NCBI GenBank assembly: GCA_020351915.1
Contig: CP070673.1
Span: forward strand, 4,812,889-4,844,888
From: Deltaproteobacteria bacterium
Lineage (GTDB): Bacteria; Desulfobacterota; DSM-4660; Desulfatiglandales; B25-G16
DNA: 32,000 nucleotides
Reading direction: 5' to 3'
Of this stretch, positions 1,660 through 21,630 are shown in pieces. Within the stretch, counting starts at the first letter, position 1, and the number at the start of each line of letters is the position of its first letter. Both the position numbers and the translations under genes were made by a program. The notes beneath the pieces were generated by a model, which was not told the DNA's origin, searched no databases, and saw nothing but the letters and a program-made list of their open reading frames with translations.

Positions 1660-2133
1660 TTACCTTGTCCCCATCTTTTCGGCGGCTGCCCTGATGGCCT
1701 CAATGATTTGTACATACCCCGTGCAGCGGCATAAGTGCCCTGAAATGGCTTTTCTGATTTCTGCCTCGGATGGGTCCGGATTCTGGTCCAAAAAAGCCTT
1801 GGCAGCTATAATCATGCCCGGGCTGCAGAATCCGCATTGGACAGCACCATGAGTCACAAACGCCTCCTGTATCGGATGAAGTTGGCCCCCTTCTGAAAGG
1901 CCTTCGATGGTGAGAATGTCTTTGCCCTGGGCTTCGAAAGCCAACATCAAGCAGGAATTGACGGCCTGTCCGTCAACGATAACGGTGCAAGCGCCACAAT
2001 GACCCTCTCCACAGCTCTGCTTGGTGCCGGTCAAGTTTAATTGATCCCTTAGAACTTCGAGCAATGTCCTCCATGGCTGCGCCTCCACCTCATAGGTCTG
2101 CCCGTTAATCCTTAATTCGATTTCTTGTTTCAC
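1660..2133 (-). CDS. [2Fe-2S]-binding small subunit of a xanthine dehydrogenase-family molybdenum hydroxylase
   Basis: Track ORF 1660-2148. Two 2Fe-2S motifs are present: CGEGHCGACTV and CGFCSPG...CRCTGY. The track start at 2148 is a TTG with no RBS. The in-frame GTG at 2133 sits 5 nt after AAGGAGG and gives MKQEIELRINGQ.., so I prefer 2133. Confidence 0.92.
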   Translation of the reverse strand: MKQEIELRINGQTYEVEAQPWRTLLEVLRDQLNLTGTKQSCGEGHCGACTVIVDGQAVNSCLMLAFEAQGKDILTIEGLSEGGQLHPIQEAFVTHGAVQCGFCSPGMIIAAKAFLDQNPDPSEAEIRKAISGHLCRCTGYVQIIEAIRAAAEKMGTR

Positions 2134-2151
2134 AACGACCTCCTTCAAGAC

Positions 2152-3036
2152 TTATGGTTCGATCTTATTGAGCGCCTGCTGGATCGCTCGACGGGTTAGA
2201 ACACCAACCATAGAGCGTCGATACTCCTCCGAGGCGCGTATGTCCGATATCGGTGAGGCTTCCCTGGATGCTGTCTCTGCCGCCAACTGAATGACCGCTT
2301 CATCTAGTTTCTTGCCGATCAAAACCCCTTCCGCCTCCTTGGCCCGGATAGGCGTGGGGGCCACAGCCCCAAGAGCCAATTTCGCCTCTTCACAGGTACC
2401 GTTTTTCGACTCAAGTGAAATAACTCCTGCCACACCGACCACGGCAAGATCCATGGCCTTCCTAATGCCGAGCTTGATGTAAGCCCCAGCACTTCGCGGT
2501 TTCATGGGCGGCACTTCCAGTCTGACCAGTATCTCATCGGGTTCCAACACGGTCTTGCCAGGCCCGACGAAAAAATCCTCGAGCAGGATAACCCTTTCTC
2601 CTTCTTTTGAGGCAATCACAGCCTTGGCGCCCAACACCAGCAGAGATGGGGCCATATCTGCCGACGGCGCAGCATTGCACAGATTTCCCCCTAAGGTTCC
2701 ACGATTTCTTATCTCGGTAGAGCCCAGCACAGATGCAGCCTGGGCCAATAGGGGGTACTGTTCTCTGATGATATCGGATCTGTCTATTTGGCTTATCTTG
2801 CACGCGGCGCCCAATTTTAGGCCGCCTGTCTTCGTAAATTGAATCTCCTCCAGATCCGGTATTTGACTGAGGGCCAACACATACTCAGGTTTTACCTCTT
2901 CATTTTTCATCTGCGGGATAAGGTCCGTCCCTCCGGCCATGACCTTGGCCTTTTGGCCATATTGATCCATCAGGGCAATCGTCTCCTCAATTGTCTTGGG
3001 ACTCAAGAATTCAAATCTTGGTAAACTTCTAAACAT
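2152..3036 (-). CDS. FAD-binding medium subunit (CoxM/XdhB-like) of a molybdenum hydroxylase
   Basis: 294 aa. It has AGGTDL near the N-terminus and the TLGGNL(C)NA motif, both typical of the FAD-binding PCMH-type domain of this family. AAGGAGG lies upstream of the ATG. It sits directly upstream of the 2Fe-2S gene (stop-to-start gap of a few nt). Only three scattered Cys, so no extra Fe-S insertion. Confidence 0.9.
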   Translation of the reverse strand: MFRSLPRFEFLSPKTIEETIALMDQYGQKAKVMAGGTDLIPQMKNEEVKPEYVLALSQIPDLEEIQFTKTGGLKLGAACKISQIDRSDIIREQYPLLAQAASVLGSTEIRNRGTLGGNLCNAAPSADMAPSLLVLGAKAVIASKEGERVILLEDFFVGPGKTVLEPDEILVRLEVPPMKPRSAGAYIKLGIRKAMDLAVVGVAGVISLESKNGTCEEAKLALGAVAPTPIRAKEAEGVLIGKKLDEAVIQLAAETASREASPISDIRASEEYRRSMVGVLTRRAIQQALNKIEP

Positions 3037-3128
3037 CTTTTCCCTCCTTGTCTTAAGTTCCTTATTTCGAAGCCGATGGGGGTGTTCACAACATATTCGG
3101 TCAAATACGTCTCCATCCGTACTGGCTT

Positions 3129-3137
3129 ATTATATCA
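3129..3137 (-). promoter_or_regulatory. Candidate extended -10 promoter element (TGATATAAT) for the FAD/2Fe-2S/large-subunit-2 genes
   Basis: The minus strand reads ttttTGATATAATaagcc, a perfect TATAAT with an upstream TGn, about 90 nt upstream of the ATG at 3036. I found no convincing -35. Sequence match only. Confidence 0.3.
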
Positions 3138-3370
3138 AAAGGCTCCTTGCCTCTGGCTAGGCCTTGCATAAAGGACAGCCAGTAAAGTCCCAGCGTAGGG
3201 TTTATCCTGTGCTTCTGGTCCAAACATGCCTCTTGAGCCGAATGTCGGCAATACCTGCTAACAATCTGCTTTCAGCAGAGGGGAACAGGACACGACTCGA
3301 TTGTTTTTGAGACAAAATGACCACCACCATCCAAATTCAGTTTCATAACTCCCTAACGTCAAGGAAGCCC

Positions 3371-3850
3371 CTAAATGGCTTTCTTAACGTTTCCTAGCTT
3401 CATAGAGTCTCCTGGAATATAGATCGCAAGCTTGCCCTCCAGCTCCCTGGCCAGGCGACCTTCCGGTTTATACCCCGTGGCCAGCACGGTGCTCTCCGCC
3501 TCAAAAAAGACCTCATTGGGGCAGTACTCAAAACTCCTCTTCACCCCCAACCTGGTGCTCCGAGATGTGGGTCACCTCAAGATCGGTCTCTATCTCTGCC
3601 TTTGCCTTCCCCAGCCAGACCGTTGTTTGCTCTGACGCCAACGGCGTACCCGATCTGCTAAGCATTCAGCGGTCCCCGAGCCGACCATTTCTTTAGGGAA
3701 TCGAAGGTATAGCGCCGGTTGCCAGAATCACAGCATCTGGCTTTTCTTTTTCAATAAGCTTTGCGGTCGCGGCATACCAAATACTCTCTTGCAGAATTGA
3801 TCTCGTATTCATGGGGCGGTAGAGCACCTCGCTATGATCATATACGCTGC
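3371..3850 (-). pseudogene. Decayed C-terminal fragment of an OYE/FadH-type FAD/NAD(P)-binding reductase (boundaries approximate)
   Basis: Minus-strand pieces in different frames: ..SILQESIWYAATAKLIEKEKPDAVILATGAIPSIP*(stop), then ..LGKAKAEIETDLEVTHISEHQVGGEEEF*(stop), then YCPNEVFFEAESTVLATGYKPEGRLARELEGKLAIYIPGDSMKLGNVKKAI*. These are colinear with ..ATAQAPEVREADALILATGASPLLPDI.., ..VRLETGVEVIRFRE.. and ..FFQADDIILAVGMKSNDGLAQALKAEVPQLYQVGDS.. of the intact 10845-12752 protein. There are at least two frame breaks, and about 70 codons are missing between the first two pieces. Confidence 0.6.
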
Positions 3851-4239
3851 CTCATCAGGATGACTTTTTAATTTCGGAAACTCGTTTTTGGACAAGTGAA
3901 AGACGATATAAAAGTTCAGAGCATTAATATCGTTCAAACGTTTTTGTGGAATGGCATATTGGTTATAGAAGATGAGTATAATTACCTGTATCCGGGCATG
4001 CCAATTTCCTCAAGGTGATATTGTTGGCCTCAAGAGAGGTGGCCAAATATGTTTGGTTTAGATGAGCCAGGCCAAGGCTCCCAGGGCATCCGAAGGGTAA
4101 ACCCCACATATTTGGCCATGGAAAAACCTGGTGGTATCTCTTAGGGAATATCGCCTTTCGAAAACCGCCGCGACCTCCTGAGGCCCTAAATGATCATTCA
4201 GTGTTATTCATGCAAACACTTTTGAACCGTACCAAACCA

Positions 4240-6513
4240 TTAGGCTTTCTGTTCAAGGGACTCAACTACTCCTTGAGGAGTGATGGGCAATTTGTTGAAT
4301 ACGACACCGGTAGCGTTCAAAACTGCATTGGACACCGCCCCTCCGGTTGGAATTGTCAATCCCTCACCCGCCTCCTTGGCACCAAATGGCCCCTCAGGTT
4401 CATAGGTCTCCACCACGATGGATTCCACCTCTGGCATGTCTGCCGCGGTGAAAAGTTTATAGTCCCTGAAGGAAGGGTTCTGGACCCGCCCATCTTCAAA
4501 CAGGAGCTGTTCTGAGAGGGCCCCCCCTAAGCCCATCTGTGCTGACCCTTGAAGCTGTCCGTCTACCAGTAGAGGATTGATTGCTTTACCGCAATCGTGG
4601 GCAGTGGTTAATTTCAGGACCCTTATTATGCCCGTCTCCCTATCCAACTCGATTTCCGCCACCTGAGCTCCAAAACTCCAAGCGGCGGAAACCAGGCCTT
4701 TGCCTCTGGGCGTATAAGCTCCTCTGCCCATAACAGGCATGCCGCCCTTCGCTCTTTTTGCAGTGGACACAGCCTCAGCAAAAGAAATGGCCTTGTCCGG
4801 CCGCTCCCTTATGTAGATTCGCCCCTCTTTAGCGTCCAGTTCCTCATGTAACCTTATGCCAAGCCTTTCCCCTGCAATCTCAAAGATTTGGCCTTTGGCG
4901 TCGAATGCGGCCCTCTTGACAGCATTCCCGGCTTGAATAGTGAGTCTACTACTCCAGGCCCCTAAATCGGCCGTGGATGTCTCCGTGTCACCAGCAAGTA
5001 TCTTCACATCTTCCAATTTTATGCCCAATTCCTCAGCCAAGATCTGTGACAGAACGGTGTTGGAACCTTGACCAAGATCTGGTGCGCGTGTATAGAGGTT
5101 AACAGTGCCATCCTCATTGACCTTTACAAGGGCCTCGGAGAAAGGGAGGTCCGTGTTGAACCAGTTAAATATCCCTCCACTGGTGAAACTATAACAGGCG
5201 ATGCCTATGCCGTGCCCCTCGGGAAGCTGTTTTCTCTTTCTCTGCCAATCTGAAGCTTCGGCCGCCTTCTTGATACATTCGCTCAGTCCACAGCTAAGTA
5301 TCTCATTGGCTATTCCCGGAACGCTGTCGCCAGTCTGAACTGCATTCTTAAGCCTCAGCTCTACAGGATCAATTTCCAATTCTCCGGCTATAAGATCCAA
5401 TTGTACTTCGCTGGCAAAATTGGGCGGCAACGCCCCATGTCCTCTCATGGCTCCTGAAGGCATGTTATTGGTGTAGACACGGCTGCCGTGATATCGATAA
5501 TTGGGGATACGGTAGGGTAAAAGACTAAACATGCCAGAAAGCAGGAGCGTGGTAGGCGTCTGGCCATTATAGGCACCGCCGTCCAGTATGATTCTTGATT
5601 CTCTCGCTACGATAGTCCCATCGATCTTGACCCCAGTCTTCATTTCGATTATTTCAGGCTGCCGTCGTCGGGTCACGGTAAACTCTTCCTCTCTTGTGTA
5701 CTCTATTCTAACCGGCCTGCCGGTTTTCTTGGAAAGCAGGGAGGCGCAAAATTCATTGGTAAACATTTCCACTTTGTTTCCAAAACCTCCACCAACATGA
5801 GGCTTTACCACGCGCACGTCATTCTCTCGCAGGCCAAGGGTGGTGGCCAGAAGCACTTGGACGAAGTAAGGGCTCTGGGTGGAGTCCCAAATCGTCAATT
5901 TACCTGAGGCATCGAAGTCGGCAACACAGACGTGGGGTTCCATAGAGGAATGCTGTACAGGCTGCGTGACGAATCTGTCTTCTCGCACATAATCGGATTC
6001 AGTGAAGCCCTTCTCTACATCGCCGATGTTTATCGTGCGGACGACGCTGACATTTCCCTCGAATCCATCATGAACCAATGGCGCACCCTCTTTCATTGCC
6101 TCCTCAGGTGTGAATACCGCTGGAAGTGGCTCATAATCCACCTGTATCAGTTCCAGGGCTTCTTGCGCCGTGTCCTCATCAATAGCGGCCACAGCGGCGA
6201 CAGCATCGCCGATAAAGCGCACCTTTTCCATAGCCAGACCTTCCTCATCCAGAAGCTCAGGCCGGACCCGCCACATCCCGTACTTAACCCCCAATGTGTC
6301 TTTGCCGGTAATAACACTCTTCACCCCGGGCAACCTGGCTGCCCTGGTTGTATCAATACTGAGAATCTTGGCATGGGCATGAGGGCTCCTCAAAATCTTC
6401 CCTATCAGCATTCCCGGCATCTTTATGTCACCAGCATATAGGGCTGCACCCTTTACCTTAACAAGACTATCTACATTAGGTATTTCCTTACCAACTACCG
6501 AATATGATCCCAT
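4240..6513 (-). CDS. Xanthine dehydrogenase/aldehyde oxidase-family molybdopterin-binding large subunit, paralog 1
   Basis: 757 aa. Family landmarks: ..LRSPHAHAKILSID.., VGGGFGNK, GQGSNTVLSQILAEELG, and C-terminal FGAKEAGEGLTIPTGGAVSNAV. Strong RBS (GAGGAGGAGG) upstream of the ATG. Confidence 0.95.
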   Translation of the reverse strand: MGSYSVVGKEIPNVDSLVKVKGAALYAGDIKMPGMLIGKILRSPHAHAKILSIDTTRAARLPGVKSVITGKDTLGVKYGMWRVRPELLDEEGLAMEKVRFIGDAVAAVAAIDEDTAQEALELIQVDYEPLPAVFTPEEAMKEGAPLVHDGFEGNVSVVRTINIGDVEKGFTESDYVREDRFVTQPVQHSSMEPHVCVADFDASGKLTIWDSTQSPYFVQVLLATTLGLRENDVRVVKPHVGGGFGNKVEMFTNEFCASLLSKKTGRPVRIEYTREEEFTVTRRRQPEIIEMKTGVKIDGTIVARESRIILDGGAYNGQTPTTLLLSGMFSLLPYRIPNYRYHGSRVYTNNMPSGAMRGHGALPPNFASEVQLDLIAGELEIDPVELRLKNAVQTGDSVPGIANEILSCGLSECIKKAAEASDWQRKRKQLPEGHGIGIACYSFTSGGIFNWFNTDLPFSEALVKVNEDGTVNLYTRAPDLGQGSNTVLSQILAEELGIKLEDVKILAGDTETSTADLGAWSSRLTIQAGNAVKRAAFDAKGQIFEIAGERLGIRLHEELDAKEGRIYIRERPDKAISFAEAVSTAKRAKGGMPVMGRGAYTPRGKGLVSAAWSFGAQVAEIELDRETGIIRVLKLTTAHDCGKAINPLLVDGQLQGSAQMGLGGALSEQLLFEDGRVQNPSFRDYKLFTAADMPEVESIVVETYEPEGPFGAKEAGEGLTIPTGGAVSNAVLNATGVVFNKLPITPQGVVESLEQKA

Positions 6514-6568
6514 AAAACCTCCTCCTCATTTTGATTGGGAAAGAAACGTTCGTTTACATACTATACTG

Positions 6569-6591
6569 CAGGAAATTATTCCAGGAAATTA
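6569..6591. repeat. Tandem direct repeat CAGGAAATTA-ttc-CAGGAAATTA in the upstream region of the 4240-6513 gene
   Basis: Two perfect 10-mers at 6569-6578 and 6582-6591 (13-bp register), 56-78 nt upstream of the ATG at 6513. The junction forms TTCCaGGAA. Confidence 0.5.
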
Positions 6592-7089
6592 AGTAATAAA
6601 ACCCCGAAATTTTTCAAACTCTATACTGTCTGGTTCAACCTTCTTCATGGCGATCTAGCCGTTCAATATCTTTATCTATATTTTCTATATAATGGATTAG
6701 ATTCCCTTGCCTAATTCATTTTGTCACATTACGAGCTCAGTGCCCCAGTTTATTTGATCAAAATGATTCTTCATAATTCTTACAAGGGAAATTCATCCTC
6801 GATCCCCAAGCTCAATTTCCCTATACTCCTTCGCCAAAAAAGCAGTCTCTTATCACCCCGTTCATAAAATGGAGGCTTTGAGTATACGCGGAGATTCACA
6901 TGTGTGGCGACCTTCCCCGGTAGGAATAGATATCGCCTTGAGGAAAGAGCCCCGGCTCCCTTTGCCTCCTCTCACACCCGGCGTACAGCTAGCTGAAATG
7001 TGAGTAAAAGTCAGCCATTGAGGGGCAAGGCAGGTGGAAGTGGTAGCTTGACCTCCATTTCCTCAGTCAGTAGCCACTGCATCACTTAA

Positions 7090-7377
7090 TTAGAGTGAAA
7101 GCACTTCCTGATAGGGCGTACCACGGAGGTATTCACCTAGTTCCTCGGTGATCTTAATGACCCAAGAATCCGGTAACAGCACGCCAACCGGGGACCTGAA
7201 CCTCAGGGTGTCCCCGTCAGGCAACTTCTCGGGAGAACTGTACAATATCGCTCTTACATTCCGGGCCTCATACTTTCTCTGACCCGATGTCAGGTCTCTA
7301 ATGGTGAGTTTGATCTCTTCGCCCTGAGGCAGTTCTTTGAGGTCCTTAACCCAGGCCAGGTATTCTTTCTTTTTCAT
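7090..7377 (-). CDS. Small (~95 aa) protein of unknown function immediately downstream of the UbiD-family gene; possible accessory subunit
   Basis: The track ORF 7090-7485 overlaps the UbiD gene. An internal start (GGAG then acaATGacaATGaaaaag; ATG at 7383 or 7377) removes the overlap and gives M(TM)KKKEYLAWVKDLKELPQGEEIKLTIRDLTSGQRKYEARNV... The composition looks protein-like. I recognised no family motif. Confidence 0.55.
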   Translation of the reverse strand: MKKKEYLAWVKDLKELPQGEEIKLTIRDLTSGQRKYEARNVRAILYSSPEKLPDGDTLRFRSPVGVLLPDSWVIKITEELGEYLRGTPYQEVLSL

Positions 7378-7418
7378 TGTCATTGTCTCCACAGATTTCA
7401 AAATGCATATCCGGTTTC

Positions 7419-8849
7419 CTACTTCAAACCATACTGCCCCCACCTTTGGAGCACCTTGTCTCTTATCTCTTTGGGATAGATACAATCGAATGAAGATCTA
7501 ATGGGGAGGGTTTCCCTGGGCCATTCAACAGGCCAGGTGCAGTCGAACACATCTATTCCCCCTTTCATTATTTTGCGCTCCTCATAACTATAACAAGGGG
7601 TGAGCATATTAGCCTTGCCCGCTGGAACCTCTTCCACAATAATACCATTGACAGGGTGGCATTTAACGGCAAAGGCATGTAAAACCTTTCCCACATCGTA
7701 GACATCCACATCTTCATCCACCACTATAATCTTATTCACCATCACACGGCGAGCCAAAAATACATCTCTAATCCTTCTAGCCATCTCCGTACCCCCAGAC
7801 CTCACTCCAATGATCACCAGGTGAGTGACACCTTCAGGCGGAGCGTAAACAGCTGTGACCGGTATACCGTGTCTTTCAAGGCGCCGCTTCATGGATATGC
7901 CAGCGGTAAGCGCGGCTGCGACCGAGGCATCATCTACAGGAACACCAAGGCTGATCATCGTAAGGATGGGGGAATTTCGGTAAGTTATCGCCTTTACCTG
8001 ACATAATACTCCTGTTCTTGCTATTCCGGTGCGATAGCCTGGATATTCGCCAAATGGCCCTTCGGGCGCTATCCCGTCAGGCAGTATCTCTGCCTCTACG
8101 ACTATTTCAGCATGGGCCGGCACCAGCAGATCACTGGTCTCACATTTAACCAGCTCCACAGGCTCTCCTCGCAGGGCCCCGGCAAAGTCAGCCTCATCTA
8201 CGTCTATGCCGTAGCCACCTGTTGCTACCATGTGGCAAAGGGGGTCTGCCCCGATGACGAGCGCCATGGGCATGGGCTTCTTTTTGGGCAGATATTTCTC
8301 CCTGAAGACAAGGGCAAGGTGGCTGATAGGGCTTGGGTCCCCGGATAGGGTTCTGCGCGTGTTAATCATGAAACGGTACATCCCCCAATTTGTCCAACCC
8401 GTCTCTGGATCATTGGTCACCACAATGTCCCAGGTGCCAAGGTAGCGCCCCCCGTCACCGTCATGAATCATCGGGGCTGGGAAAAGGGAGAGGTCCACGT
8501 CCTCCCCCATCAGCACATTTTCCTTGCAAGGACCAGAGTCGACCACAACAGGCTTTATTGGGTGCTGTTCTCTCTGTTCATACTCTTGATGGATAGCAGG
8601 AATGGGTGTATCAGGATCGAGTCCCAGGGCGATAGCCACTCTCCTGTAAGTTCCCAAGGAACCACCAAGTATGCGATGACCAGGATAATCCCTTATGTTC
8701 TCGAAAAGGACAGCTGGGCCTTGCGTCTCATAACAGCGTCGATTTATAGCGCCTGCTTCCAGCTCCCAGTCGACTTCCTCCTTGATTCGGACGATATCCC
8801 TGCTCTTGTCCAAGGCTTCCATAAACTCACGAACACTGTCAAATGCCAT
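7419..8849 (-). CDS. UbiD-family (prFMN-dependent) aromatic (de)carboxylase
   Basis: 476 aa. UbiD landmarks: N-terminal ..REF(M)EAL.., ..GGRYLGTW.., WGMYR, EGPFGEYPGY (family GPFGE(F/H)xGY with the conserved Glu), and VVDEDVDV. The C-terminal ..SFDCIYPKEIRDKVLQRWGQYG resembles the phenylphosphate/arene carboxylase-type tail as I recall it. AGGAGG RBS. Confidence 0.9.
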   Translation of the reverse strand: MAFDSVREFMEALDKSRDIVRIKEEVDWELEAGAINRRCYETQGPAVLFENIRDYPGHRILGGSLGTYRRVAIALGLDPDTPIPAIHQEYEQREQHPIKPVVVDSGPCKENVLMGEDVDLSLFPAPMIHDGDGGRYLGTWDIVVTNDPETGWTNWGMYRFMINTRRTLSGDPSPISHLALVFREKYLPKKKPMPMALVIGADPLCHMVATGGYGIDVDEADFAGALRGEPVELVKCETSDLLVPAHAEIVVEAEILPDGIAPEGPFGEYPGYRTGIARTGVLCQVKAITYRNSPILTMISLGVPVDDASVAAALTAGISMKRRLERHGIPVTAVYAPPEGVTHLVIIGVRSGGTEMARRIRDVFLARRVMVNKIIVVDEDVDVYDVGKVLHAFAVKCHPVNGIIVEEVPAGKANMLTPCYSYEERKIMKGGIDVFDCTWPVEWPRETLPIRSSFDCIYPKEIRDKVLQRWGQYGLK

Positions 8850-8872
8850 TCCTTCCTCCTGTCGTATATTTT

Positions 8873-10534
8873 CTATAAATGGTTGTTCTGGAGCCTCGCC
8901 TCATTTTTGAGTTTCTCTACGATGTCTTGGGCAAGTCGCTTCTTATCTACTTTTTGTTCTCCTACCATGGGGAGTCGCTCTACAATAACCAGCTTTTCTG
9001 GCAGTTTATATGTGGCAATGCCTTTCTCCTTGAGGAAAGAGATCATTTCATCAAACGAAAAATCCTGGCCAGGCTTAGGCACGAGGTAAACACATGCCTT
9101 CTCACCCATAACGGGATCGGGCATCCCCACGATGGCAACGTCCAACACTTTGGGATGAGTCAAGAGTAAGTCCTCGACCTCAACGGGGTAGATATTCTGT
9201 CCTCCTCGAATGATCATGTCTTTCTTCCGGCCCATGACAAAAATGTTGTCTTGCTCATCAAATCTACCCAGATCACCGAGCTTGAACCAGCCATCCTTGG
9301 TCCAGGCCTGCCAGGTAGACTCGAGGTCTTTAAAGTATCCTGAGGCACAAGCTGGTCCTCTTCCCCATATCTCTCCAACTTCCCCTTTTGCCACTTCTTT
9401 GCCAGCGTCGTCAACCAATTTTATTTCAGTCCCACCCCTCGCCTTACCGACTGTTGGCAAACGAACCTCGGGGGGGTCATCAAATCGGGTAGCGGTCGTA
9501 CCACCAAAATCTACTGCACCAATTCCTGTAATTACCATTCCTCCCAGTTTCTCTTCGGCTTCCACTCTAAGCTGGTAAGAGACCGGGGCCCCAACGCACC
9601 ACCAGACTCGTAGCGAACTGAGATCGCAGCGCTCGATGTCAGGATGCCCCACCATCTTGGCCAGTTGGGCTGGAACAACCAAGCCGACGGTGATCCTCTC
9701 ATCTTGAATCAACCCGAGGCTTTCCCCAGCCTCAAAACGCTCTTGCACGACAATCTTTGCACCCACTCCCGGTGCAGCAAAATAAGCTACACAATTAGGC
9801 CCAGCTGGTGCAGGGCCAAAGACACCGATGATATCGTTGCCAGTAAGTTCCAAAACCTCCGAAAGTGTGCGGGCAAGGTTATGGCGAGCACAGAAGGGAA
9901 ATTCGACAAACTTTGGAAAACCAGTGGTACCGCTCGTGAGGGTAATGATCGAAACCTCCGTGGAAGCATAACTTCTCTCTTCAAGGAGGCTTGTGGGGTA
10001 TTTTTCTTTTAAGGGCCGCTGGATCATCTCATTAATAGAGATTGCCCCTTGAGGGACCTTGTCACCCATTACGAAAATATACCTCAGCGATGGCAGATTG
10101 GGCCAAATCTCCTTTATCATGTTAAAGTAATCGAAATCTCTATACACCCCTGGGTTGATCACCCCCAGTGCTCCACAATGTTTTATGATGTATTCCATTT
10201 CCCTACGCCGCAAAGTCATCAATCCATGTAGGGAAAGGATGCCAGCCTTCTCACAGGCCACCCTCAGTAAGGGAAGCTCGGCACAGTTAGGTAGCTGAAT
10301 GACAATACTATCATCCTTCTCAAAACCTATTTCCACCAACCCCCAGGCCAACCTATCTATTACCTGCTCAGCCTGGGCCCAAGTTAGCCTGGTCTTGGAG
10401 TCCACAATCGCCTCTTTGTCAGGATAGTCTCTGGCATTTCGGTCCCACAATCTGGACAGACTTGTGGGCTCCCACCATCCCCTTTCCATATATTCACTGA
10501 TCAATTCTGGAGTGTATCGAGTTGGCTTTGCCAT
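8873..10534 (-). CDS. AMP-forming acyl/aryl-CoA ligase (adenylate-forming superfamily; aryl/alicyclic-acid type N-terminus)
   Basis: 553 aa. Motifs: LTSGTTGFPKFV (A3/P-loop), GWFKLGDLGRFDEQDNIFVMGRKKDMIIRGGQNIYPVEVE (A7/A8) and the C-terminal Lys region ..GEQKVDKK... The N-terminal Y..RGWW...T pattern resembles aryl-acid activating enzymes. Confidence 0.9.
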   Translation of the reverse strand: MAKPTRYTPELISEYMERGWWEPTSLSRLWDRNARDYPDKEAIVDSKTRLTWAQAEQVIDRLAWGLVEIGFEKDDSIVIQLPNCAELPLLRVACEKAGILSLHGLMTLRRREMEYIIKHCGALGVINPGVYRDFDYFNMIKEIWPNLPSLRYIFVMGDKVPQGAISINEMIQRPLKEKYPTSLLEERSYASTEVSIITLTSGTTGFPKFVEFPFCARHNLARTLSEVLELTGNDIIGVFGPAPAGPNCVAYFAAPGVGAKIVVQERFEAGESLGLIQDERITVGLVVPAQLAKMVGHPDIERCDLSSLRVWWCVGAPVSYQLRVEAEEKLGGMVITGIGAVDFGGTTATRFDDPPEVRLPTVGKARGGTEIKLVDDAGKEVAKGEVGEIWGRGPACASGYFKDLESTWQAWTKDGWFKLGDLGRFDEQDNIFVMGRKKDMIIRGGQNIYPVEVEDLLLTHPKVLDVAIVGMPDPVMGEKACVYLVPKPGQDFSFDEMISFLKEKGIATYKLPEKLVIVERLPMVGEQKVDKKRLAQDIVEKLKNEARLQNNHL

Positions 10535-10689
10535 TGAGGTTTTCCCCTTATTAGTGTGCTCTAACTCAGTGTCTGAAACTTTATTCTTAAAGCTTCGTCT
10601 TAATATCCTGGCAGGTCAGCCCTACCGCATCCCCAAATGATAGGTCATAGGATTTCAGGTGGCGCCTTCTCACAAAAGCAGGGTAGACA

Positions 10690-10700
10690 GTGTGTCACAC
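10690..10700. promoter_or_regulatory. Palindrome GTGTG-t-CACAC in the reductase/ligase intergenic region
   Basis: Perfect 5-1-5 inverted repeat seen directly in the sequence. Candidate operator. No assigned regulator. Confidence 0.25.
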
Positions 10701-10760
10701 ATTCTCTTACGATTCGTAAAAAATGAGTTACCTTAAGGAGAGGTATGTTATGCCAAAAGC

Positions 10761-10788
10761 CCTTGGGGGAAAGAAATTTCTTTGCTAT
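10761..10788. promoter_or_regulatory. 14-bp perfect palindrome AAAGAAATTTCTTT plus a third AAGAAATT half-site
   Basis: 10761-10774 is self-complementary with no loop, so it is more likely a protein-binding site than an RNA hairpin. The half-site AAGAAATT recurs at 10781-10788. It lies between the reductase stop (10845) and the ligase start (10534). Confidence 0.3.
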
Positions 10789-10844
10789 TAAGAAATTATT
10801 ATTTTCAAGGTGTCAGACGTAAGAGGGTCTTCTATCCGTCCAGT

Positions 10845-12752
10845 TCAAAGTTTTGCGGCTACATAGTAAGCCTCCTGCATAGCCTCTCCCAATTTACGCG
10901 GTTGTAAAGAATCGCCTACCTGGTAAAGCTGGGGCACTTCTGCTTTCAGTGCTTGAGCTAAACCATCGTTGGACTTCATGCCCACAGCGAGGATAATGTC
11001 ATCAGCTTGGAAAAATTCACTCTGTTCTTTGCGCAAGACCTCAACGCCATCCTCTCTAAACCGTATGACCTCAACGCCAGTCTCAAGTCTGACCCCGGCC
11101 TCTCTCAGTCTCGAAAGGAGCCTCCAGCGAAGGGTGGGTCCCATGTCCCCTGCCATTCTGTCAAGCATCTCCAGCACAGTCACATTTTTACCCTTCTTAC
11201 TCAGTAACTCAGCAGTCTCACACCCTACCATGCCGCCACCCACGATAATGACCCCGTTGCCCACTTCCTTCATTCCCATAAGCACGTCCAATGCTGTAAC
11301 CACGTTTTTCCCTTCAATTCCAAGAATATCTGGCAAAAGCGGGCTGGCCCCTGTTGCCAGAATAAGAGCATCAGCCTCTCTCACTTCTGGTGCTTGAGCG
11401 GTGGCCTCATGACTTAGTTTGAATAAAACTCCCTGTTTTTCCATTTGACCAACGAAATACCTATTCAAGTCACCGAAGTCGCTCTTAAAAGGTGGGATAG
11501 AGGCGACTTGAAGATTCCCCCCAAGTTCGTCCTCCTTTTCTAAGAGAGTCACTTCGTGGCCTCGCTTTGCAGCTATTACTGCTGCCTCCATCCCGGCCGG
11601 TCCCCCTCCTATTACGACCACCTTCTTTCTATCCACTGCTGGCTTGATCGCATATTCTGGGTCACTCTCTCTCCCAGCCCTAGGATTGACGACACACCAT
11701 ATGGGCCTTCCCTGAAACACGTTGTCGTAACAACCCTGGCAGCAGCAAATGCACGGAATAATGTCTTCGGGGCGATTTTCAGCCAATTTTTGAGGTATCT
11801 CAGGGTCAGCTATAAAGGGACGCGATGCCTCCCAAAGGTCTATGATACCTGCGTTGATCGCCTTGTCCGCTTCTGTATGTGTGACGCGGTAGGCCATCAT
11901 CGTCGGAATCTTGACGACCTTCTTTATCCGTTCAGCTAAATAAAGCCAGTGTCCCCGTGCTATCTCCCCAGTAATTGCAGGGACCGTCGATTCGTGCCAT
12001 CCCACCGTAAGGCTCAGGGCATCAACGCCAGTTTCCTCAAGCATCTTTGCCACGTTTGTCAGCTCTTCAGGGCTGCTGCCTTCGGGCATTAATTCGTCGC
12101 CGCACATGCGGAACACCAGGGGAAACTCCTTTCCTGTCTTAGATTTTATTGCATCGACCACCTCTGAGCTGAAACGAGCCCTATTTTCCAAGCTGCCACC
12201 GTATTGATCAGTACGTGTATTTGTCCAAGGGGAGAGAAAGCTTGAGAGAAGATATCCAGCGCAGGCACATACTTCTACAGCATCGAACCCGGCCACTTTC
12301 GCCCTTCTTGCTGTTTCCCCAAAGGCCCTTACTAATTCAGCGATTTCTGTTTCACTCAGTTGGCGGGGCTCCGCCCGGGTCATAATCCGTGTTGGTACGG
12401 ACGAGGCATCTGTTAATTCCTCTCGACGGTAGGTGTACCTGCCACAATGACCAATAGAGAGACAGGCCTTGGCTCCTCCTGAATGAATTGCTTCGGCCAG
12501 TTCACGAAAATCGGCAATAAAACTATCATCCCAACCGCCCAACATATTGGGGACTAGACGGCCCCAAGGCGTGACGTGAGAAATCCCCGTGGTCACGAGA
12601 CCTACGCCTCCTTTCGCGCGCTCTTCCAACCACCTTTTCTCCTGCTCAGTTACTCTTCCCTCTTTAGTGCAAAAACAGGTGGTCGTGGATGCGAATTTGA
12701 CCCTGTTTCGCAGACACAAATTACCAATATACCCTTCCTCAAGTAACATCAT
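10845..12752 (-). CDS. OYE-family FMN/[4Fe-4S]/FAD oxidoreductase (2,4-dienoyl-CoA reductase / enoate reductase / 2-naphthoyl-CoA reductase-like architecture)
   Basis: The N-terminal OYE TIM-barrel pattern is present (L.LRNR...., RAKGGVGLVTTG, IGHCGR). There is a Cys cluster CICCCQGC...C, then two Rossmann motifs, VVVIGGGPAGMEAA and VIIVGGGMVGCETA. The track start at 12764 is TTG. The ATG at 12752 lies 5 nt after GGAGG and is preferred (MMLLEEGYIGN..). Confidence 0.9.
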   Translation of the reverse strand: MMLLEEGYIGNLCLRNRVKFASTTTCFCTKEGRVTEQEKRWLEERAKGGVGLVTTGISHVTPWGRLVPNMLGGWDDSFIADFRELAEAIHSGGAKACLSIGHCGRYTYRREELTDASSVPTRIMTRAEPRQLSETEIAELVRAFGETARRAKVAGFDAVEVCACAGYLLSSFLSPWTNTRTDQYGGSLENRARFSSEVVDAIKSKTGKEFPLVFRMCGDELMPEGSSPEELTNVAKMLEETGVDALSLTVGWHESTVPAITGEIARGHWLYLAERIKKVVKIPTMMAYRVTHTEADKAINAGIIDLWEASRPFIADPEIPQKLAENRPEDIIPCICCCQGCYDNVFQGRPIWCVVNPRAGRESDPEYAIKPAVDRKKVVVIGGGPAGMEAAVIAAKRGHEVTLLEKEDELGGNLQVASIPPFKSDFGDLNRYFVGQMEKQGVLFKLSHEATAQAPEVREADALILATGASPLLPDILGIEGKNVVTALDVLMGMKEVGNGVIIVGGGMVGCETAELLSKKGKNVTVLEMLDRMAGDMGPTLRWRLLSRLREAGVRLETGVEVIRFREDGVEVLRKEQSEFFQADDIILAVGMKSNDGLAQALKAEVPQLYQVGDSLQPRKLGEAMQEAYYVAAKL

Positions 12753-13331: not shown

Positions 13332-14104
13332 CTCTGCTCAGCAATCCTTATCAGAAGTTAATAATTGGTCTCTTGTATCAGTAGACGTGCAGCCGTTCAG
13401 CACCTGAAGGAATGTCTGACGTCTCCAAAAAAGGAGATTAAAACGATTAATACTTCTGATAGATACCTCTGAATATGTTTTGTGATACGCTATGATGAGG
13501 GTTATTCATGACTGCTTTAGTGCCTGCAATTAGTCGATGAGTCCACAGCCGATTCTTTGAAGTAGCTTGATATTTTACAGCCTAATGATTCAATAATATC
13601 AATCATTATGACTATCAAAAAGAGGCTAAGTTTTTGTTGACAATCTTGTTTTTCTTTTATATGAACAAGCTGCCTATCAAAATAATGACCGTTCGGTAGG
13701 TTTACCTCAATTTTATAAAGTTTCCTCTCACTTTCAAGCAATGATGTTTTTTTATAAACGGACGGACACAGGAGAAAGACAAGGATTTGAAAAAAGAGCA
13801 TTTGGCTGTGCTTGGTCTGGGCTTGTCCTTTTGCAATGCTTGGAGGAGAAGAGATGCTATGTGGTTTGATGTCCACACAGAAATGTGCTTTTTAGGACAA
13901 AGGAAAGATGAATAAGATTTACTTTGCCGAATGAAGGCTGCCAAAAACAAGAAGTGAGCAATCGAGGAGGTTGGATGAGCTGCCATTCGAATAAAGTCTT
14001 CGAGTGTGGAATGTCTTTCGGCCATCTATACTTGTGATGATGAATACTATTCATTACCAGGTCTCATAAAACGGTTTCATGCTATTTGATAGGAGGTGAG
14101 AATA

Positions 14105-15514
14105 ATGATCGGCATTATTTCATATGGTGCCTACGTTCCCCTTTGGAGACTGAGAAGAGAGGTTATATCCAGAGGAGGGCGAGGTGAGAAAAGCGTGGCA
14201 AGCTTTGATGAAGACAGTTTAACCATGGCGGTATCTGCGGTTAACAACTCTTTGGCAGGTATGGACAGGGAGTTGGTGGATGCCTTATTTTTCGCTTCAA
14301 CAACCTTTCCTTATAAAGAGAAACAGGGCTCAAGTATAGTTGCGGCGGCCACTGATCTCCGAAGAAATATATTAACTATTGACTCCGCCAATACGCTGAG
14401 AGGGGGCACAAGCTCGGTTAAGCTTGCTAAAGATATGGTGAGAGCTGGATCAGCGAGAAATATAGCTGTCGTGGCTTCCGATTGCCGATTAGGAGAGCCT
14501 GGGTCAGTTTTTGAACAGATCTGTGGCGATGGTGCTGGAGCTCTCGTAATTGGCGATACCGATGTTGCGGTTGAAATAGAGGGCACCTACTCGGTATACA
14601 ATGAGATGATTGATGTCTGGCGGGCAGACGACGACAAATTTGTCCGTGCCTGGGAAGATAGGTTTATTCAATCACAGGGATATATTAAGGGGATCCAAGG
14701 GGCGGTCACGGCTTTAATGAAGGATCACAGCATGGAACCCAGGGACTTTGCCAAGGCGGTTATCTATGCCCCAGACCAAAAAAGGGTTGCGGAGTTAGTT
14801 GCCAAACTTGGCTTTGATCCCGAAAAACAGTTGCAGGATCCTTTAATTTCGGCGATGGGGAATACAGGAACGGCCTACCCACTGATGCTTTTAATTGCAT
14901 CCCTTGAAGATGCCAAGCCTGGTGATAGAATTCTGTGGGCCAGTTATGGTGACGGCAGTGATGTCCTTATTCTCAAGGTCGCCGAAGCCATAGAGAATAT
15001 CAGAGACAGGAAGGGTATGAAAAAACTCCTGGCATCCAAAAAAGACCTAGGGGACTATACTGCATATCTGACAAGGAAAGGCTTGCTTAAGATGGATAGG
15101 GGACCAAAATACTCTCCTCAAGTTGTTTCCGCGACAGCATTATGGAGGGATTTGGATGAGGTTATTCGACTTTATGGGGTCAAGTGCAACTCATGTGGCA
15201 CTATTCAATACCCGCCCCAGAGAATATGTACCAAATGCCATGCCAGGGATCAATTCGAAAAGGTGAGGCTTTCTGACAAAAGAGCAAAGCTATTTACGTA
15301 TTCCCTCGATTTCGTATCCAATCCCCTAGAAGTACCGATGGTTGTGCCGGTTATTGATTTTGACGGAGGTGGCCGTTCAGCCGGCATTATTATGACTGAT
15401 CAGGACCCCAAGGAGCTACAGATCGGCATGCCGTTGGAGATGAGTTTCAGAAAGTTATTCAGTAATGACGGTATACATAATTACTTCTGGAAGTGCGCCC
15501 CCTTGAGGACTTAA
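14105..15514 (+). CDS. Fusion protein: HMG-CoA synthase-like (thiolase-fold) domain + C-terminal DUF35 zinc-ribbon/OB-fold domain, copy 1
   Basis: The track start at 14096 is GTG. The ATG at 14105 lies 8 nt after AGGAGG and matches the paralog N-terminus (MIGIISYGAYVPLWRL vs MVGITSYGAYIPFLRL). The HMGCS-like segment has ..DEDS(L/I)TMAV.., GDGAGAL and GNTG. The C-terminal part has CNSCGTIQYPPQRICTKC plus an OB-like tail ..IDFDGGGR...IGMPLEMSFRK. Confidence 0.85.
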   Translation: MIGIISYGAYVPLWRLRREVISRGGRGEKSVASFDEDSLTMAVSAVNNSLAGMDRELVDALFFASTTFPYKEKQGSSIVAAATDLRRNILTIDSANTLRGGTSSVKLAKDMVRAGSARNIAVVASDCRLGEPGSVFEQICGDGAGALVIGDTDVAVEIEGTYSVYNEMIDVWRADDDKFVRAWEDRFIQSQGYIKGIQGAVTALMKDHSMEPRDFAKAVIYAPDQKRVAELVAKLGFDPEKQLQDPLISAMGNTGTAYPLMLLIASLEDAKPGDRILWASYGDGSDVLILKVAEAIENIRDRKGMKKLLASKKDLGDYTAYLTRKGLLKMDRGPKYSPQVVSATALWRDLDEVIRLYGVKCNSCGTIQYPPQRICTKCHARDQFEKVRLSDKRAKLFTYSLDFVSNPLEVPMVVPVIDFDGGGRSAGIIMTDQDPKELQIGMPLEMSFRKLFSNDGIHNYFWKCAPLRT

Positions 15515-15535
15515 TAATCAAATTTAGGAGGGATT

Positions 15536-16717
15536 ATGGGTGGAATAAAGGATAAAATTGCGATCGTAGGCATGGGTTGCAGCAAGTTTGGAGAGCTTTG
15601 GGATAAAAGCCAGAATGATCTTATGATAGAGTCTTGCTATGAGGCATTGGATGATGCAGGGATTGATACAAAGGATATCCAGGCAGCCTGGTTGGCGACG
15701 GCCGAAAGCGGTCGAACGGGGATGAGACTTGCCCGGGCATTGAAGACCGATTACATCCCTGTGACCAGAGTTGAGAATCTCTGCGCCAGCGGAACCGATG
15801 CAATGCGCCAGGCCTGTTATGCAGTGGCGGCGGGGATATACGATATTGTCCTTGTCTGTGGATTCGAAAAGTTGAAGGATACGAAAGATCTCTTTGGAGG
15901 CAGCCTCGAGGGGCCTTGGAACACCAAGATTGATCCCAATTTGCCGCCGGCTACAGCATACGCTTTGGCAGCTAACCGGTATTTTCACCAGTACGGTTTA
16001 AGCCCTGAGGAGGGTAAGGAGATATTAGGCAAGATTGCCGTAAAGAATCATCGTAATGGGAGTCTGAATCCCAAGGCCCATTTCCAAAGGGAGATCACCC
16101 TGGAACAGGCCATAAAAGCCCCTATGATTGCCGCCCCGTTGGGGTTATATGATTGCTGTGCTGTGAGTGATGGATCAGCCGCGGCTGTGATTACTAGGGC
16201 TGAGCTAGCCAAAAAACTCAGGGATGACTATGTCCTGGTTAAGTCGGTTCAAGTGGTTACTGGTGCTTATGAAAGGCCATTACAAAACGATGCGGATTTT
16301 GTCCATTTTGAGGAAAATGTGGTCGCTGCTAACTTGGCTTATAAAGAAGCTGGAATCACTGATCCACGAAAGGAGATCGACTTGGCCATTGTTCATGACT
16401 GCTTTACAATCACTGAATTAATCATCTACGAAGACCTGGGGTTCAGCCCTCGCGGACAGGCCAAAGAGGATGTCAATGCAGGCACCTTCGAGTTGGGTGG
16501 AGGACTGCCGGTGAATACTGACGGAGGGTTGAAATGTTTCGGCCATCCTATTGGCGCAAGCGGTTTGAGAATGCTGTACGAGGCGTATAAGCAATTACAG
16601 GACAAAGCTGGTCCCCGTCAGGTGAAAAATGCCAACATAGCTTTGACGCACAACATAGCTGGGACTCCACGTGAATCATCTGTTTCTGGAATAACCATTT
16701 TAGGGCGTAGGAACTAG
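15536..16717 (+). CDS. SCP-x/archaeal-type thiolase (thiolase-like, non-FadA type), copy 1
   Basis: 393 aa. Motifs: VAIVGMGCSKFGE, nucleophile region VENLCASGTDA, IVHDCFTITE and NTDGGLKCFGHPIGASGLRM. RBS AGGAGG. Starts 21 nt after the upstream fusion gene. Confidence 0.9.
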   Translation: MGGIKDKIAIVGMGCSKFGELWDKSQNDLMIESCYEALDDAGIDTKDIQAAWLATAESGRTGMRLARALKTDYIPVTRVENLCASGTDAMRQACYAVAAGIYDIVLVCGFEKLKDTKDLFGGSLEGPWNTKIDPNLPPATAYALAANRYFHQYGLSPEEGKEILGKIAVKNHRNGSLNPKAHFQREITLEQAIKAPMIAAPLGLYDCCAVSDGSAAAVITRAELAKKLRDDYVLVKSVQVVTGAYERPLQNDADFVHFEENVVAANLAYKEAGITDPRKEIDLAIVHDCFTITELIIYEDLGFSPRGQAKEDVNAGTFELGGGLPVNTDGGLKCFGHPIGASGLRMLYEAYKQLQDKAGPRQVKNANIALTHNIAGTPRESSVSGITILGRRN

Positions 16718-16965
16718 GAAAAGTGACTTTAGACCTTAACCGCTCATCCAAATAAGTTTAGACCCACCAATTCGGTATTCTGATATGGAACATTTGCTTT
16801 GCAAATTCTGGCATTCGAGGTTTCTCCCGTAATCCTGCGGGATGATTGAAGTGAAGTAACTTGTTTGTCGAGGGATTTCCTTTTTTCACCCTCTCTTAAG
16901 CTCTTCTCTTTGAAGGGAGAGGGCCGAATAAAGGCATTAACTTGCTTTAGTTAAGGAGGCGTATA

Positions 16966-18963: not shown

Positions 18964-19032
18964 GATGGGATAGTCCAATTAGATTAAGAAAAGAGGAAAG
19001 ATTCGAGGGTATGAAGGAACAAGGAGAAAACA

Positions 19033-20430: not shown

Positions 20431-20442
20431 AGAGGGGATCAA

Positions 20443-21630
20443 ATGGAGAGCATTGAGGACAAGGTTGCTATCGTTGGTATGGGTTGTACCAAATTCGGGG
20501 AGCTATGGGACAAGAGTGGTGATGATTTGCTGATCGATGCAACTTATGAAGCCCTTGAGGATGCCGGGATTGGACCCGAGGATGTTCAGGCGGCATGGTT
20601 TGGGACGGCTTGGTCCGGTCTCACTGCTTTAAACGTGAGTGTTCCTCTGAAGACACAATACATTCCGGTGACCAGGGTGGAAAATATATGTGCTACCGCA
20701 ACTGAGGCTTTGCGAGCGGCCATTTATGCCATAGCAGCCGGGGCGTGTGACGTGGCTCTGGCCGTTGGTATGGAAAAGCTGAAGGATACCTTCGGCGTTG
20801 TGGGCCCACAGGGGTCAGATATTGGCATTTCCTCAATGGGAACTTCGGGCATAGAAAGGATTCACATTCCGACCGTTTATTACTCGATGCTTGCGGTGAG
20901 GTATTTTCATCGCTATGGAATGAGTGTGGAAAAAGGTAAGGAGCTTATTGCTCGAATCCCCGTGAAGAGTCACCATAATGCCTCGATGAATCCGAAGGCT
21001 CATTTTCGGAATGAAATAACGATGGATCAGGTCCTCAAGGCTCCGATCATTGCGTATCCATTGGGATTACTTGATTGCTGTGGGTATAGTGATGGGGCAG
21101 CAGCGGCCGTAGTGACGAGGGCGGACATGGCAAAGAGTTTTCGAGATGACCCTATCTCTATCAAGGCCTTATCCGTGAACGTGGGGGCTCGTCAGGGTTT
21201 CCTGCAGCAGGATTACGACTATACCCATGTGGAGGCAAATCGTCGTGCCGCCCAAGCCGCCTATAAAGAGGCAGGGATAAGCAATCCTCTTAAGGAACTG
21301 TCTATGGCCGAGGTTCATGATTGTTTTTCGATTCATGAGTTGGTCATCTATGAGGATCTTCAATTTTGCCCTCCTGGCGGAGCCAAAGAATATATCGAGG
21401 GCGGTGTCTTTGAACTGGATGGAGAGCTGCCGGTCAATACTGATGGTGGCCTAAAGTGTTTTGGCCACCCGTTTGGGGCCAGCGGTTTGAGGATGATCTA
21501 TGAAGCGTATTTGCAGTTGCAAGGGAAGGCCGGTCCTCGTCAGGTGAAGGATCCCCAGCTTGCATTATGTCATAATCTTGGAGGTGGCCCGGGCCAGGGC
21601 ATTGGCAGTGTAGTTATCTTTGGAAATTGA
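20443..21630 (+). CDS. SCP-x/archaeal-type thiolase, copy 2
   Basis: 395 aa, colinear with 15536-16717. Motifs: VAIVGMGCTKFGE, VENICATATEA, EVHDCFSIHE and NTDGGLKCFGHPFGASGLRM. Starts 12 nt after the upstream fusion gene. Confidence 0.9.
   Translation: MESIEDKVAIVGMGCTKFGELWDKSGDDLLIDATYEALEDAGIGPEDVQAAWFGTAWSGLTALNVSVPLKTQYIPVTRVENICATATEALRAAIYAIAAGACDVALAVGMEKLKDTFGVVGPQGSDIGISSMGTSGIERIHIPTVYYSMLAVRYFHRYGMSVEKGKELIARIPVKSHHNASMNPKAHFRNEITMDQVLKAPIIAYPLGLLDCCGYSDGAAAAVVTRADMAKSFRDDPISIKALSVNVGARQGFLQQDYDYTHVEANRRAAQAAYKEAGISNPLKELSMAEVHDCFSIHELVIYEDLQFCPPGGAKEYIEGGVFELDGELPVNTDGGLKCFGHPFGASGLRMIYEAYLQLQGKAGPRQVKDPQLALCHNLGGGPGQGIGSVVIFGN

Follow-up and report, generated by a model that had tools for sequence, protein, structure and literature searches.

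PpcA-like UbiD proteins accompanied by a gamma subunit belong to the anaerobic phenol pathway and to clusters that have been implicated in the degradation of benzene, naphthalene and isophthalate. In Syntrophorhabdus, the isophthalate-induced cluster encodes both the activation of isophthalate and the decarboxylation of isophthalyl-CoA (PMC9516798), and PpcA-like decarboxylases have already been proposed in the literature for terephthalyl-CoA. For benzene, the genes of the putative carboxylase cluster run ubiX, bzlA, abcA and abcD, with AbcD listed under ppcC (PMC5852087). The naphthalene carboxylase clusters open with a PpcA-like and gamma-like pair, behind which lie MRP/ParA ATPases and three additional UbiDs; N47 and NaphS2 keep their carboxylase, ligase (PaaK-like) and reductase genes in different clusters (PMC6849830). 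Here we analyse a 32,000-nucleotide stretch (the window) of the genome of a Deltaproteobacteria bacterium from the Desulfatiglandales (assembly GCA_020351915.1, contig CP070673.1, positions 4,812,889 to 4,844,888), which carries between positions 12752 and 7090 a block of four genes for an old yellow enzyme (OYE)-family reductase, an AMP-forming ligase, a UbiD-family enzyme and a gamma-type small subunit. The block is a variant of the ligase-coupled PpcA-like UbiD/gamma systems, whose ligase comes from another family and which, in this lineage, includes a reductase resembling 2-naphthoyl-CoA reductase (NCR). Most likely, the ligase-UbiD-gamma module makes an aryl-CoA from an aromatic carboxylic acid.

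All four genes lie on the minus strand. The reductase (12752..10845, UCG65269; alternative TTG start at 12764) has 635 amino acids and combines a flavin mononucleotide (FMN) TIM barrel, a [4Fe-4S] linker and domains of the flavin adenine dinucleotide (FAD)/NAD(P) type. After it come a 553-amino-acid AMP-forming acyl/aryl-CoA ligase of the DhbE/EntE/medium-chain type (10534..8873, UCG65268), a 476-amino-acid UbiD-family (de)carboxylase of the prenylated FMN (prFMN) type, from a clade sister to PpcA (8849..7419, UCG65267), and a cysteine-free gamma-type small subunit of 95 amino acids from the PpcC/PpcG/AbcD family (7377..7090, UCG65266). The sequence-only reading had described four co-directional genes here; all are present, they coincide with the GenBank coding sequences UCG65269 to UCG65266, and the Pfam domains bear out its naming of the OYE, the AMP ligase and the UbiD. 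The tight packing that it reported for the last three genes was also found, with measured gaps of 23 nucleotides between ligase and UbiD and 41 between UbiD and gamma, compared to a spacer of 310 nucleotides (10535..10844) between OYE and ligase. A scan for promoter and terminator consensus sequences gave no convincing signal in these spacers, and terminator-like sites were fewer than in shuffled sequences. Moreover, the window lacks UbiX and a second UbiD, as had been claimed: tblastn searches with UbiX, PpcA, PpcB and other UbiD queries found neither in the 32 kb. PpcB, PpcD, PpsA and PpsB gave no matches in the window either, and no MRP/ParA-type family matched among the large window open reading frames (ORFs) that were scanned.

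A profile of the UbiD searched against the GTDB species genomes retrieved 80 loci, and 11 more came from contig look-ups; removal of duplicates and of the PpcA reference left 84 related loci. In 73 of these a gamma ORF is located directly downstream of UbiD, and in 53 an AMP ligase lies within 4.5 kb of it (21 of the DhbE/medium-chain type, 33 of the PaaK type); of the 42 loci flanked on each side by 3 kb or more, 32 have a ligase near UbiD. Homologs of PpsA, PpsB and PpcD were found in none of the 84. Given these counts, ligase-UbiD-gamma, or UbiD-gamma-ligase, is a conserved unit distinct from phenylphosphate carboxylase. The clustering of ligase, UbiD and gamma thus exceeds chance, and this applies to three of the four genes only. 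The four-gene block put forward by the sequence-only reading has to be narrowed to this extent: its three-gene core is conserved, whereas the OYE is kept only in a sister lineage. Ligase orthologs with 46-66% identity adjoin UbiD-gamma in 21 loci, and in the 19 loci where the ligase is at least 40% identical, the identities of ligase and UbiD co-vary (r = 0.76). Second UbiD paralogs, PpcB/PpcY-like, occur near 16 of the 84 UbiDs. The taxa that carry the module UbiD include Desulfobacterales, Syntrophales, Dehalococcoidia and other Chloroflexota, Binatia, Acidobacteriota, Methylomirabilia and Clostridia, and some genomes carry several paralogs.

The UbiD protein contains the three Pfam domains PF20695 (UbiD_N, 80.8 bits), PF01977 (UbiD, 206.4 bits) and PF20696 (UbiD_C, 50.5 bits), all above their gathering thresholds. 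Its best family model is that of PpcA (TIGR02723, phenyl_P_alpha), with 433.7 bits under an equivalog cut-off of 564.6, while VdcC gives 271, menaquinone decarboxylase 190 and ubiquinone UbiD 162 bits. The clustering with ubiquinone-biosynthetic UbiD for which the sequence-only reading had allowed was therefore not seen. Of the enzymes with a known structure, Fdc1, HudA and TtnD reach about 268 bits and AroY 129; phthaloyl-CoA decarboxylase, at only 74 bits, was rejected as a relative. Residues N154, R159, H177, E219, E263 and E268 align with N168, R173, H191, E233, E277 and E282 of Fdc1. In the A. niger enzyme, we take N168, H191 and E233 to be the metal/prFMN ligands, and R173, E277 and E282 to form the Glu-Arg-Glu network. 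Since the ligands and the network are all kept, the window UbiD should be a working prFMN enzyme, with its UbiX encoded elsewhere.

This UbiD is 45% identical to PpcA of Azoarcus and 56-57% identical to the UbiDs of the Syntrophorhabdus and Pelotomaculum phthalate clusters. In a neighbour-joining tree (100 bootstraps) of the UbiDs from the related loci, with PpcA, PpcB and PpcY of Azoarcus as references, the related UbiDs formed a clade that shuts out genuine PpcA with a support of 86/100 and that includes the Syntrophorhabdus ortholog; the window UbiD's own subclade was supported by 89/100 bootstraps.

The sequence-only reading had recognised the last gene only as an ORF of about 95 codons. 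The ORF is real, and its family, which had been missed, is that of the Ppc-gamma/AbcD-type small subunits (PF09662). The protein scores 36.6 bits against the Pfam model Phenyl_P_gamma (gathering threshold 25) and 37.6 bits against the NCBIfam equivalog TIGR02725 (cut-off 135.55). As it passes the former and misses the latter, we classify it by these profile scores as a member of the Ppc-gamma family, not as an ortholog. Its identity is 33% both to the genuine PpcG from the Azoarcus sp. KH32C phenol cluster (E 9e-11) and to the Syntrophorhabdus ortholog of SynarDRAFT_0374 (E 2e-13). A confident AlphaFold (AF2) model (pLDDT 86) predicts a small, five-stranded all-beta fold, for which no significant PDB match was found. 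A word-indexed search for gamma homologs returned 10 proteins only.

The comparison with the isophthalate system could be anchored in Syntrophorhabdus sp. PtaB.Bin006, where the locus has the order UbiD, gamma-like ORF, PaaK-type ligase, BenE and UbiX. The published forward primer for SynarDRAFT_0374 has a perfect match where the gamma-like ORF of this locus (3921-4235) begins, which confirms the locus as the ortholog of the isophthalate cluster. Its ligase is the counterpart of isophthalate-CoA ligase (IPCL), an enzyme that has been characterised biochemically, and from the position of the UbiD upstream of SynarDRAFT_0374 we infer that it is isophthalyl-CoA decarboxylase (IPCD). The gamma of this locus is 46% identical to that of Pelotomaculum, and the Pfam model misses it. 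A cluster syntenic with that of Syntrophorhabdus was observed in Pelotomaculum terephthalicicum JT (2142-9804 of its contig), consisting of a sigma-54 regulator, UbiD, gamma, a PaaK-type ligase, BenE and UbiX; it offers a concrete candidate for the route of terephthalate, the genetics of which have yet to be worked out. The window shares with the IPCL/IPCD clusters of S. aromaticivorans (SynarDRAFT_0374/0375) and P. terephthalicicum a UbiD of the same clade, a gamma directly next to it and an adjoining AMP-forming ligase. However, the order is UbiD, gamma, ligase in those clusters and ligase, UbiD, gamma in the window; moreover, BenE and UbiX adjoin the genes there, not in the window, and no OYE is present there.

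Other described systems also resemble the block in part. In the PpcABCD system, represented by the plasmid cluster of Azoarcus sp. KH32C, an alpha-like UbiD is likewise followed directly by gamma, and the Ppc models are the best for both window proteins, but these fall under the equivalog cut-offs (45% identity for PpcA), and beta and delta subunits as well as ppsABC are missing from the window. This canonical cluster ends with an AMP ligase and a transporter. The likeness to the benzene AbcDA-BzlA cluster lies in the gene order, the window order being that of genes 7, 8 and 9 of contig-100_0 (PMC5852087); by contrast, UbiX adjoins the benzene genes, BzlA is described as a benzoate-CoA ligase and the taxonomic range of the cluster is narrow. 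AbcA (D8WWP8) was not among the best 120 protein matches to the window UbiD. The cluster of the benzene degrader ORM2a ('Magic') was considered and rejected as a comparison, its authors reporting neither known hydrocarbon-activating gene homologs nor a benzoyl-CoA ligase. The naphthalene and phenanthrene clusters (N47_K27540-K27460, NPH_5855-5863) have the PpcA-like and gamma-like pair in common with the window, and NCR and 2-phenanthroyl-CoA reductase (type III) are, like the window reductase, OYEs with FMN, [4Fe-4S] and FAD; they differ in that MRP/ParA ATPases and additional UbiD paralogs are missing from the window, whose OYE has none of the NCR residues W459, Y82 and F573.

The ligase contains the Pfam domains AMP-binding and AMP-binding_C, not AMP-binding_C_2, and reaches no NCBIfam equivalog cut-off. 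In the PDB it is matched best, with 238 bits, by salicylate-AMP and 2,3-dihydroxybenzoate-AMP (DHB-AMP) ligases. Of the DhbE specificity residues, N235 is kept, and H234, Y236 and S240 are replaced by P, C and A, respectively; naming the substrate from these positions was dropped, the residue signal being too weak.

The reductase carries an Oxidored_FMN domain (220 bits) and a Pyr_redox_2 domain (139 bits), and by sequence it belongs to the NCR/FadH three-domain class. Its best PDB match is NCR (6qkg; 486 bits, 42% identity over 622 aligned residues), and FadH scores 343 bits, so that a grouping with housekeeping FadH, the other outcome considered beforehand, was likewise not observed. Similar scores of 449-474 bits, each under its cut-off, came from the models for mycofactocin OYE_2, BaiCD and bilirubin reductase. 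The four [4Fe-4S] cysteines of a CxxCxxxC...C motif align with C367, C370, C374 and C386 of NCR, and the FadH cysteines align too. For the features behind the low potential of NCR, the comparison covered W459, which blocks the NADPH site, Y82 and H284, which activate Y197, E341, which counters R245, and the F375/F379/F573 cluster. The window OYE keeps Y197 (the proton donor), R245, H284, Y320, E341 and F379, whereas FadH is without Y320 and E341. On the other hand, W459 is changed to F (F424 in FadH), Y82 to V and F375 to Y, and the segment with F573 is deleted. Because of the F at the W459 position, the loss of Y82 and the deletion of the F573 segment, the OYE may use NAD(P)H.

The complete OYE-ligase-UbiD-gamma block recurs only in a sister lineage (six contigs, 92.4% nucleotide identity), where it is kept despite a differing downstream flank. 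Since it recurs only in this closely similar lineage, the adjacency of the OYE is inseparable from shared ancestry, and the OYE is a lineage-specific add-on to the module. The OYE-ligase spacer measures 142 nucleotides in the sister lineage versus 310 in the window; about 165-173 nucleotides of the window spacer (10662-10835), with an AT-rich hairpin inside and no other copy in the window, are absent there. On the 3' side of the block, blastn alignment to the sister contigs continues through 6874..7089 (minus strand) and synteny ends at 6874; beyond this point, the sister contigs carry an ORF of 199 amino acids, an Amidohydro_2 protein and a second UbiD (L092; 39% identity); a transposase remnant was seen in L093. 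A metagenome scan with the OYE gave one 1.9-kb fragment with no ligase and was uninformative. In other subclades, the module stands beside reductases of different kinds (nitroreductase family, ornithine cyclodeaminase (OCD)/mu-crystallin, Pyr_redox_2), which hints that reduction may repeatedly follow the reactions of the module.

The commonest neighbours of the module are carboxylate and solute uptake proteins, namely NMT1-type and other solute-binding proteins (SBPs), MFS, DctM, TctC and BenE. At the DhbE-type loci, 11 of 79 neighbour ORFs are NMT1-type SBPs, with other SBPs in addition; neighbours at the PaaK-type loci include MFS, DctM, TctC, NMT1 and BenE, and a Zoogloeaceae metagenome-assembled genome has the order UbiD, gamma, ligase, MFS transporters. 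Further associations were noted in individual subclades. A large one, mostly on Binatia chromosomes (L051-L076), has a PaaK-type ligase upstream of UbiD-gamma, and 12 of its 125 sampled neighbour ORFs belong to the OCD/mu-crystallin family, a different reductase partner, which may point to N-heterocyclic carboxylates as substrates. In the window's own subclade (L001, L004, L006, L083), a nitroreductase-family flavoprotein and an SBP_bac-type SBP recur beside the module; neither is in the window. At a locus whose UbiD-gamma is 82% identical (L088), the flanks (1-1986 and 4818-5534) encode, in place of a ligase, a bis-molybdopterin guanine dinucleotide oxidoreductase, a short-chain dehydrogenase/reductase and an aldehyde:ferredoxin oxidoreductase of the BamB-type family.

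The sequence-only reading had held two logics possible, carboxylation, ligation and reduction, or ligation and decarboxylation. Both have real precedents, because the isophthalate and the benzene/naphthalene clusters use the same two proteins. The balance now moves, not decisively, toward ligation and then decarboxylation of an aromatic dicarboxylate, followed by reduction, to which we assign a probability of about 0.4, since the isophthalate cluster is the nearest experimentally backed relative, none of the accessory components of the known carboxylases was found, and proteins for the uptake of anionic solutes are the most frequent neighbours. The energy-coupling parts of those carboxylases are lacking in that the 84 loci have no Pps or PpcD and the window has no MRP/ParA or extra UbiD. 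While the gene identities, the complete set of catalytic residues, the conserved module and the placement in the clade are observations, the way in which UbiD works, its complex with gamma, the part played by the OYE and the kind of substrate are what we infer in the following scheme. The AMP-forming ligase would thioesterify one carboxyl of an imported aromatic or heteroaromatic acid bearing a second one, and the prFMN-dependent UbiD, in complex with gamma, would remove this second carboxyl to leave a simpler aryl-CoA, in the step order of isophthalate-CoA ligase and isophthalyl-CoA decarboxylase. In this lineage, the NCR-like FMN/[4Fe-4S]/FAD reductase would then probably reduce the resulting aryl-CoA or a conjugated derivative.

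Several points weigh against ligation followed by decarboxylation. The IPCL/IPCD cluster uses a PaaK-type ligase of 435 amino acids, in contrast to the 553-residue DhbE/medium-chain type of the window. No BenE, MFS or other transporter and no UbiX adjoins the block in the window, and the OYE is absent upstream of the module in the relatives with flank sequence at or below 82% UbiD identity (L014, L083, L088-L091). IPCD itself is reportedly supported by cell-extract and proteomic work only, and we know of no assayed or characterised member of the window UbiD subclade. Furthermore, a ligase and transporters as neighbours fit either order of steps, because the canonical ppc cluster ends with both, and the PpcA-sister position, the Abc-like gene order and the NCR-like reductase fit carboxylation equally well.

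Were carboxylation to come first, UbiD-gamma would carboxylate a neutral arene, heteroarene or phenolic, the ATP-dependent ligase would trap the acid as a CoA thioester and so pull an unfavourable equilibrium, and the OYE would dearomatise or reduce the aryl-CoA without ATP, after the logic of the benzene and naphthalene pathways. The order ligase, UbiD, gamma is indeed that of the published bzlA, abcA and abcD (PMC5852087), the naphthalene clusters begin with a PpcA-like and gamma-like pair (PMC6849830), PpcA in the sister group is a true carboxylase, and the OYE, at 42% identity to NCR, keeps E341 and Y320, which FadH lacks. We nevertheless regard this as unlikely, though well short of negligible: the second UbiD, MRP/ParA, Pps and PpcD are missing from the window, and Pps and PpcD from the related loci; the clade spans Binatia, Chloroflexota, Acidobacteriota and Methylomirabilia, with paralogs, whereas hydrocarbon carboxylases are narrowly distributed; its typical neighbours are solute-binding proteins and carboxylate transporters; the low-potential design of NCR is incomplete in the OYE, as this has F for W459 and is without Y82 and F573; and no OYE stands beside any of the more distant module homologs. 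A compact four-gene pathway that carboxylates, thioesterifies and dearomatises, with a two-subunit UbiD-gamma acting on an unactivated arene or heteroarene, CoA ligation at the cost of ATP pulling the equilibrium and an NCR-like OYE reducing the ring without ATP, is doubtful in its turn; if true, it would be a minimal machinery for benzene or naphthalene activation without the multi-UbiD/ATPase complex. A more remote idea is that the adjoining flavoproteins, the OYE here and the nitroreductase-family proteins in the sister loci, serve an oxygen-free maturation of prFMN.

Another alternative is that the four genes do not form one pathway, ligase-UbiD-gamma acting alone and the OYE being an independent enoate or dienoyl-CoA-type reductase that lies upstream by chance. 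The long spacer before the ligase (310 nucleotides, or 142 in the sister lineage, versus 23 and 41 within the module), the missing OYE in all the relatives with flank sequence up to 82% UbiD identity, the near-equal, sub-cut-off scores of three other reductase models and the F at the W459 position, which points to a FadH-like, open site for NAD(P)H, all favour such a separation. Yet the genes are co-directional with no terminator between them in a simple scan, the block is intact across the rearrangement boundary in the sister lineage, and the other reductases paired with the module elsewhere hint at a recurrent reductive step, so we consider an unrelated OYE rather improbable. A streamlined phenol/4-hydroxybenzoate route, in which UbiD-gamma would interconvert a phenolic and its para-hydroxy acid in the manner of the Ppc core or of a hydroxyarylic acid decarboxylase, the ligase would form the 4-hydroxyaryl-CoA and a molybdenum (Mo) enzyme would dehydroxylate it to benzoyl-CoA, draws on the genes downstream of the block. 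The large subunit of a Mo hydroxylase resembling the alpha subunit of 4-hydroxybenzoyl-CoA reductase (4240..6513, minus strand) starts 577 nucleotides downstream of gamma on the same strand, and its best model is the Hcr alpha model TIGR03194 (773 bits against a cut-off of 995; next best, XdhA with 596 bits). In addition, PpcA is the best model for the UbiD, the small ORF belongs to the PpcG family, and the Azoarcus ppc cluster likewise ends in an AMP ligase. However, every Ppc and Hcr equivalog cut-off is missed, the window has no PpcB, PpcD or Pps, and the FAD subunit reaches only 149 bits of the 405 demanded for HcrB (TIGR03195) and is about 30 residues under the model length, which would fit a loss of the iron-sulfur loop of HcrB. 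The Mo genes also lie past the synteny break, where the sister lineage has other genes, and a decayed gene fragment sits between their subunits. This route therefore appears very unlikely, and ligation followed by decarboxylation is the reading that we retain.

As no Mo genes were found beside the other module homologs, and those of the window lie past the synteny break, they are genome-specific context outside the conserved unit; the Mo enzyme may still act on a hydroxyaryl-CoA product. Its other two subunits, both of the xanthine-dehydrogenase family and on the minus strand, are the FAD subunit (3036..2152; Pfam FAD_binding_5/CO_deh_flav_C) and the [2Fe-2S] subunit (2148..1660; Pfam Fer2/Fer2_2). 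The Hcr gamma model scores 177 bits against a cut-off of 258, so that all three Hcr cut-offs (TIGR03193, TIGR03194, TIGR03195) are missed. Between the FAD and large subunits, the 1.2 kb at 3036-4240 (minus strand) hold no long ORF and contain frame-broken fragments like the C-terminal pyr_redox part of OYE/FadH, which looks like a decayed gene. At 1-1610 (minus strand), a second Mo large-subunit paralog, 46% identical to that at 4240-6513, is cut off by the left edge of the window. On the other side of the block, a divergent operon (14096-21630, plus strand) encodes two fusions of a 3-hydroxy-3-methylglutaryl-CoA-synthase-like part with DUF35 (ChsH2 zinc ribbon plus OB), each with an SCP-x-type thiolase; between these two fusion-thiolase pairs lies a 3-hydroxyacyl-CoA dehydrogenase/enoyl-CoA hydratase fusion. 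Next after this operon are genes for an ABC uptake system and a second CoA ligase (28128-29774). Finally, a group II intron domain D1-D4 RNA was identified at 30477-30715 (plus strand; Rfam RF02005, 102.9 bits, E 3e-28), and the 1.3 kb of window remaining after it contain no ORF of the size of a reverse transcriptase.

The analysis brings out a large, multi-phylum UbiD clade that is coupled to CoA ligases of two types, without the phenylphosphate machinery. Once found, the substrate of the window subclade would extend the routes by which anaerobes and subsurface organisms funnel aromatic carboxylates into aryl-CoA metabolism. If carboxylation proved to be the true reaction, this would be much more interesting than decarboxylation. 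Knowledge of the substrate would also make UbiD-gamma a simple two-subunit system in which to study the role of gamma.

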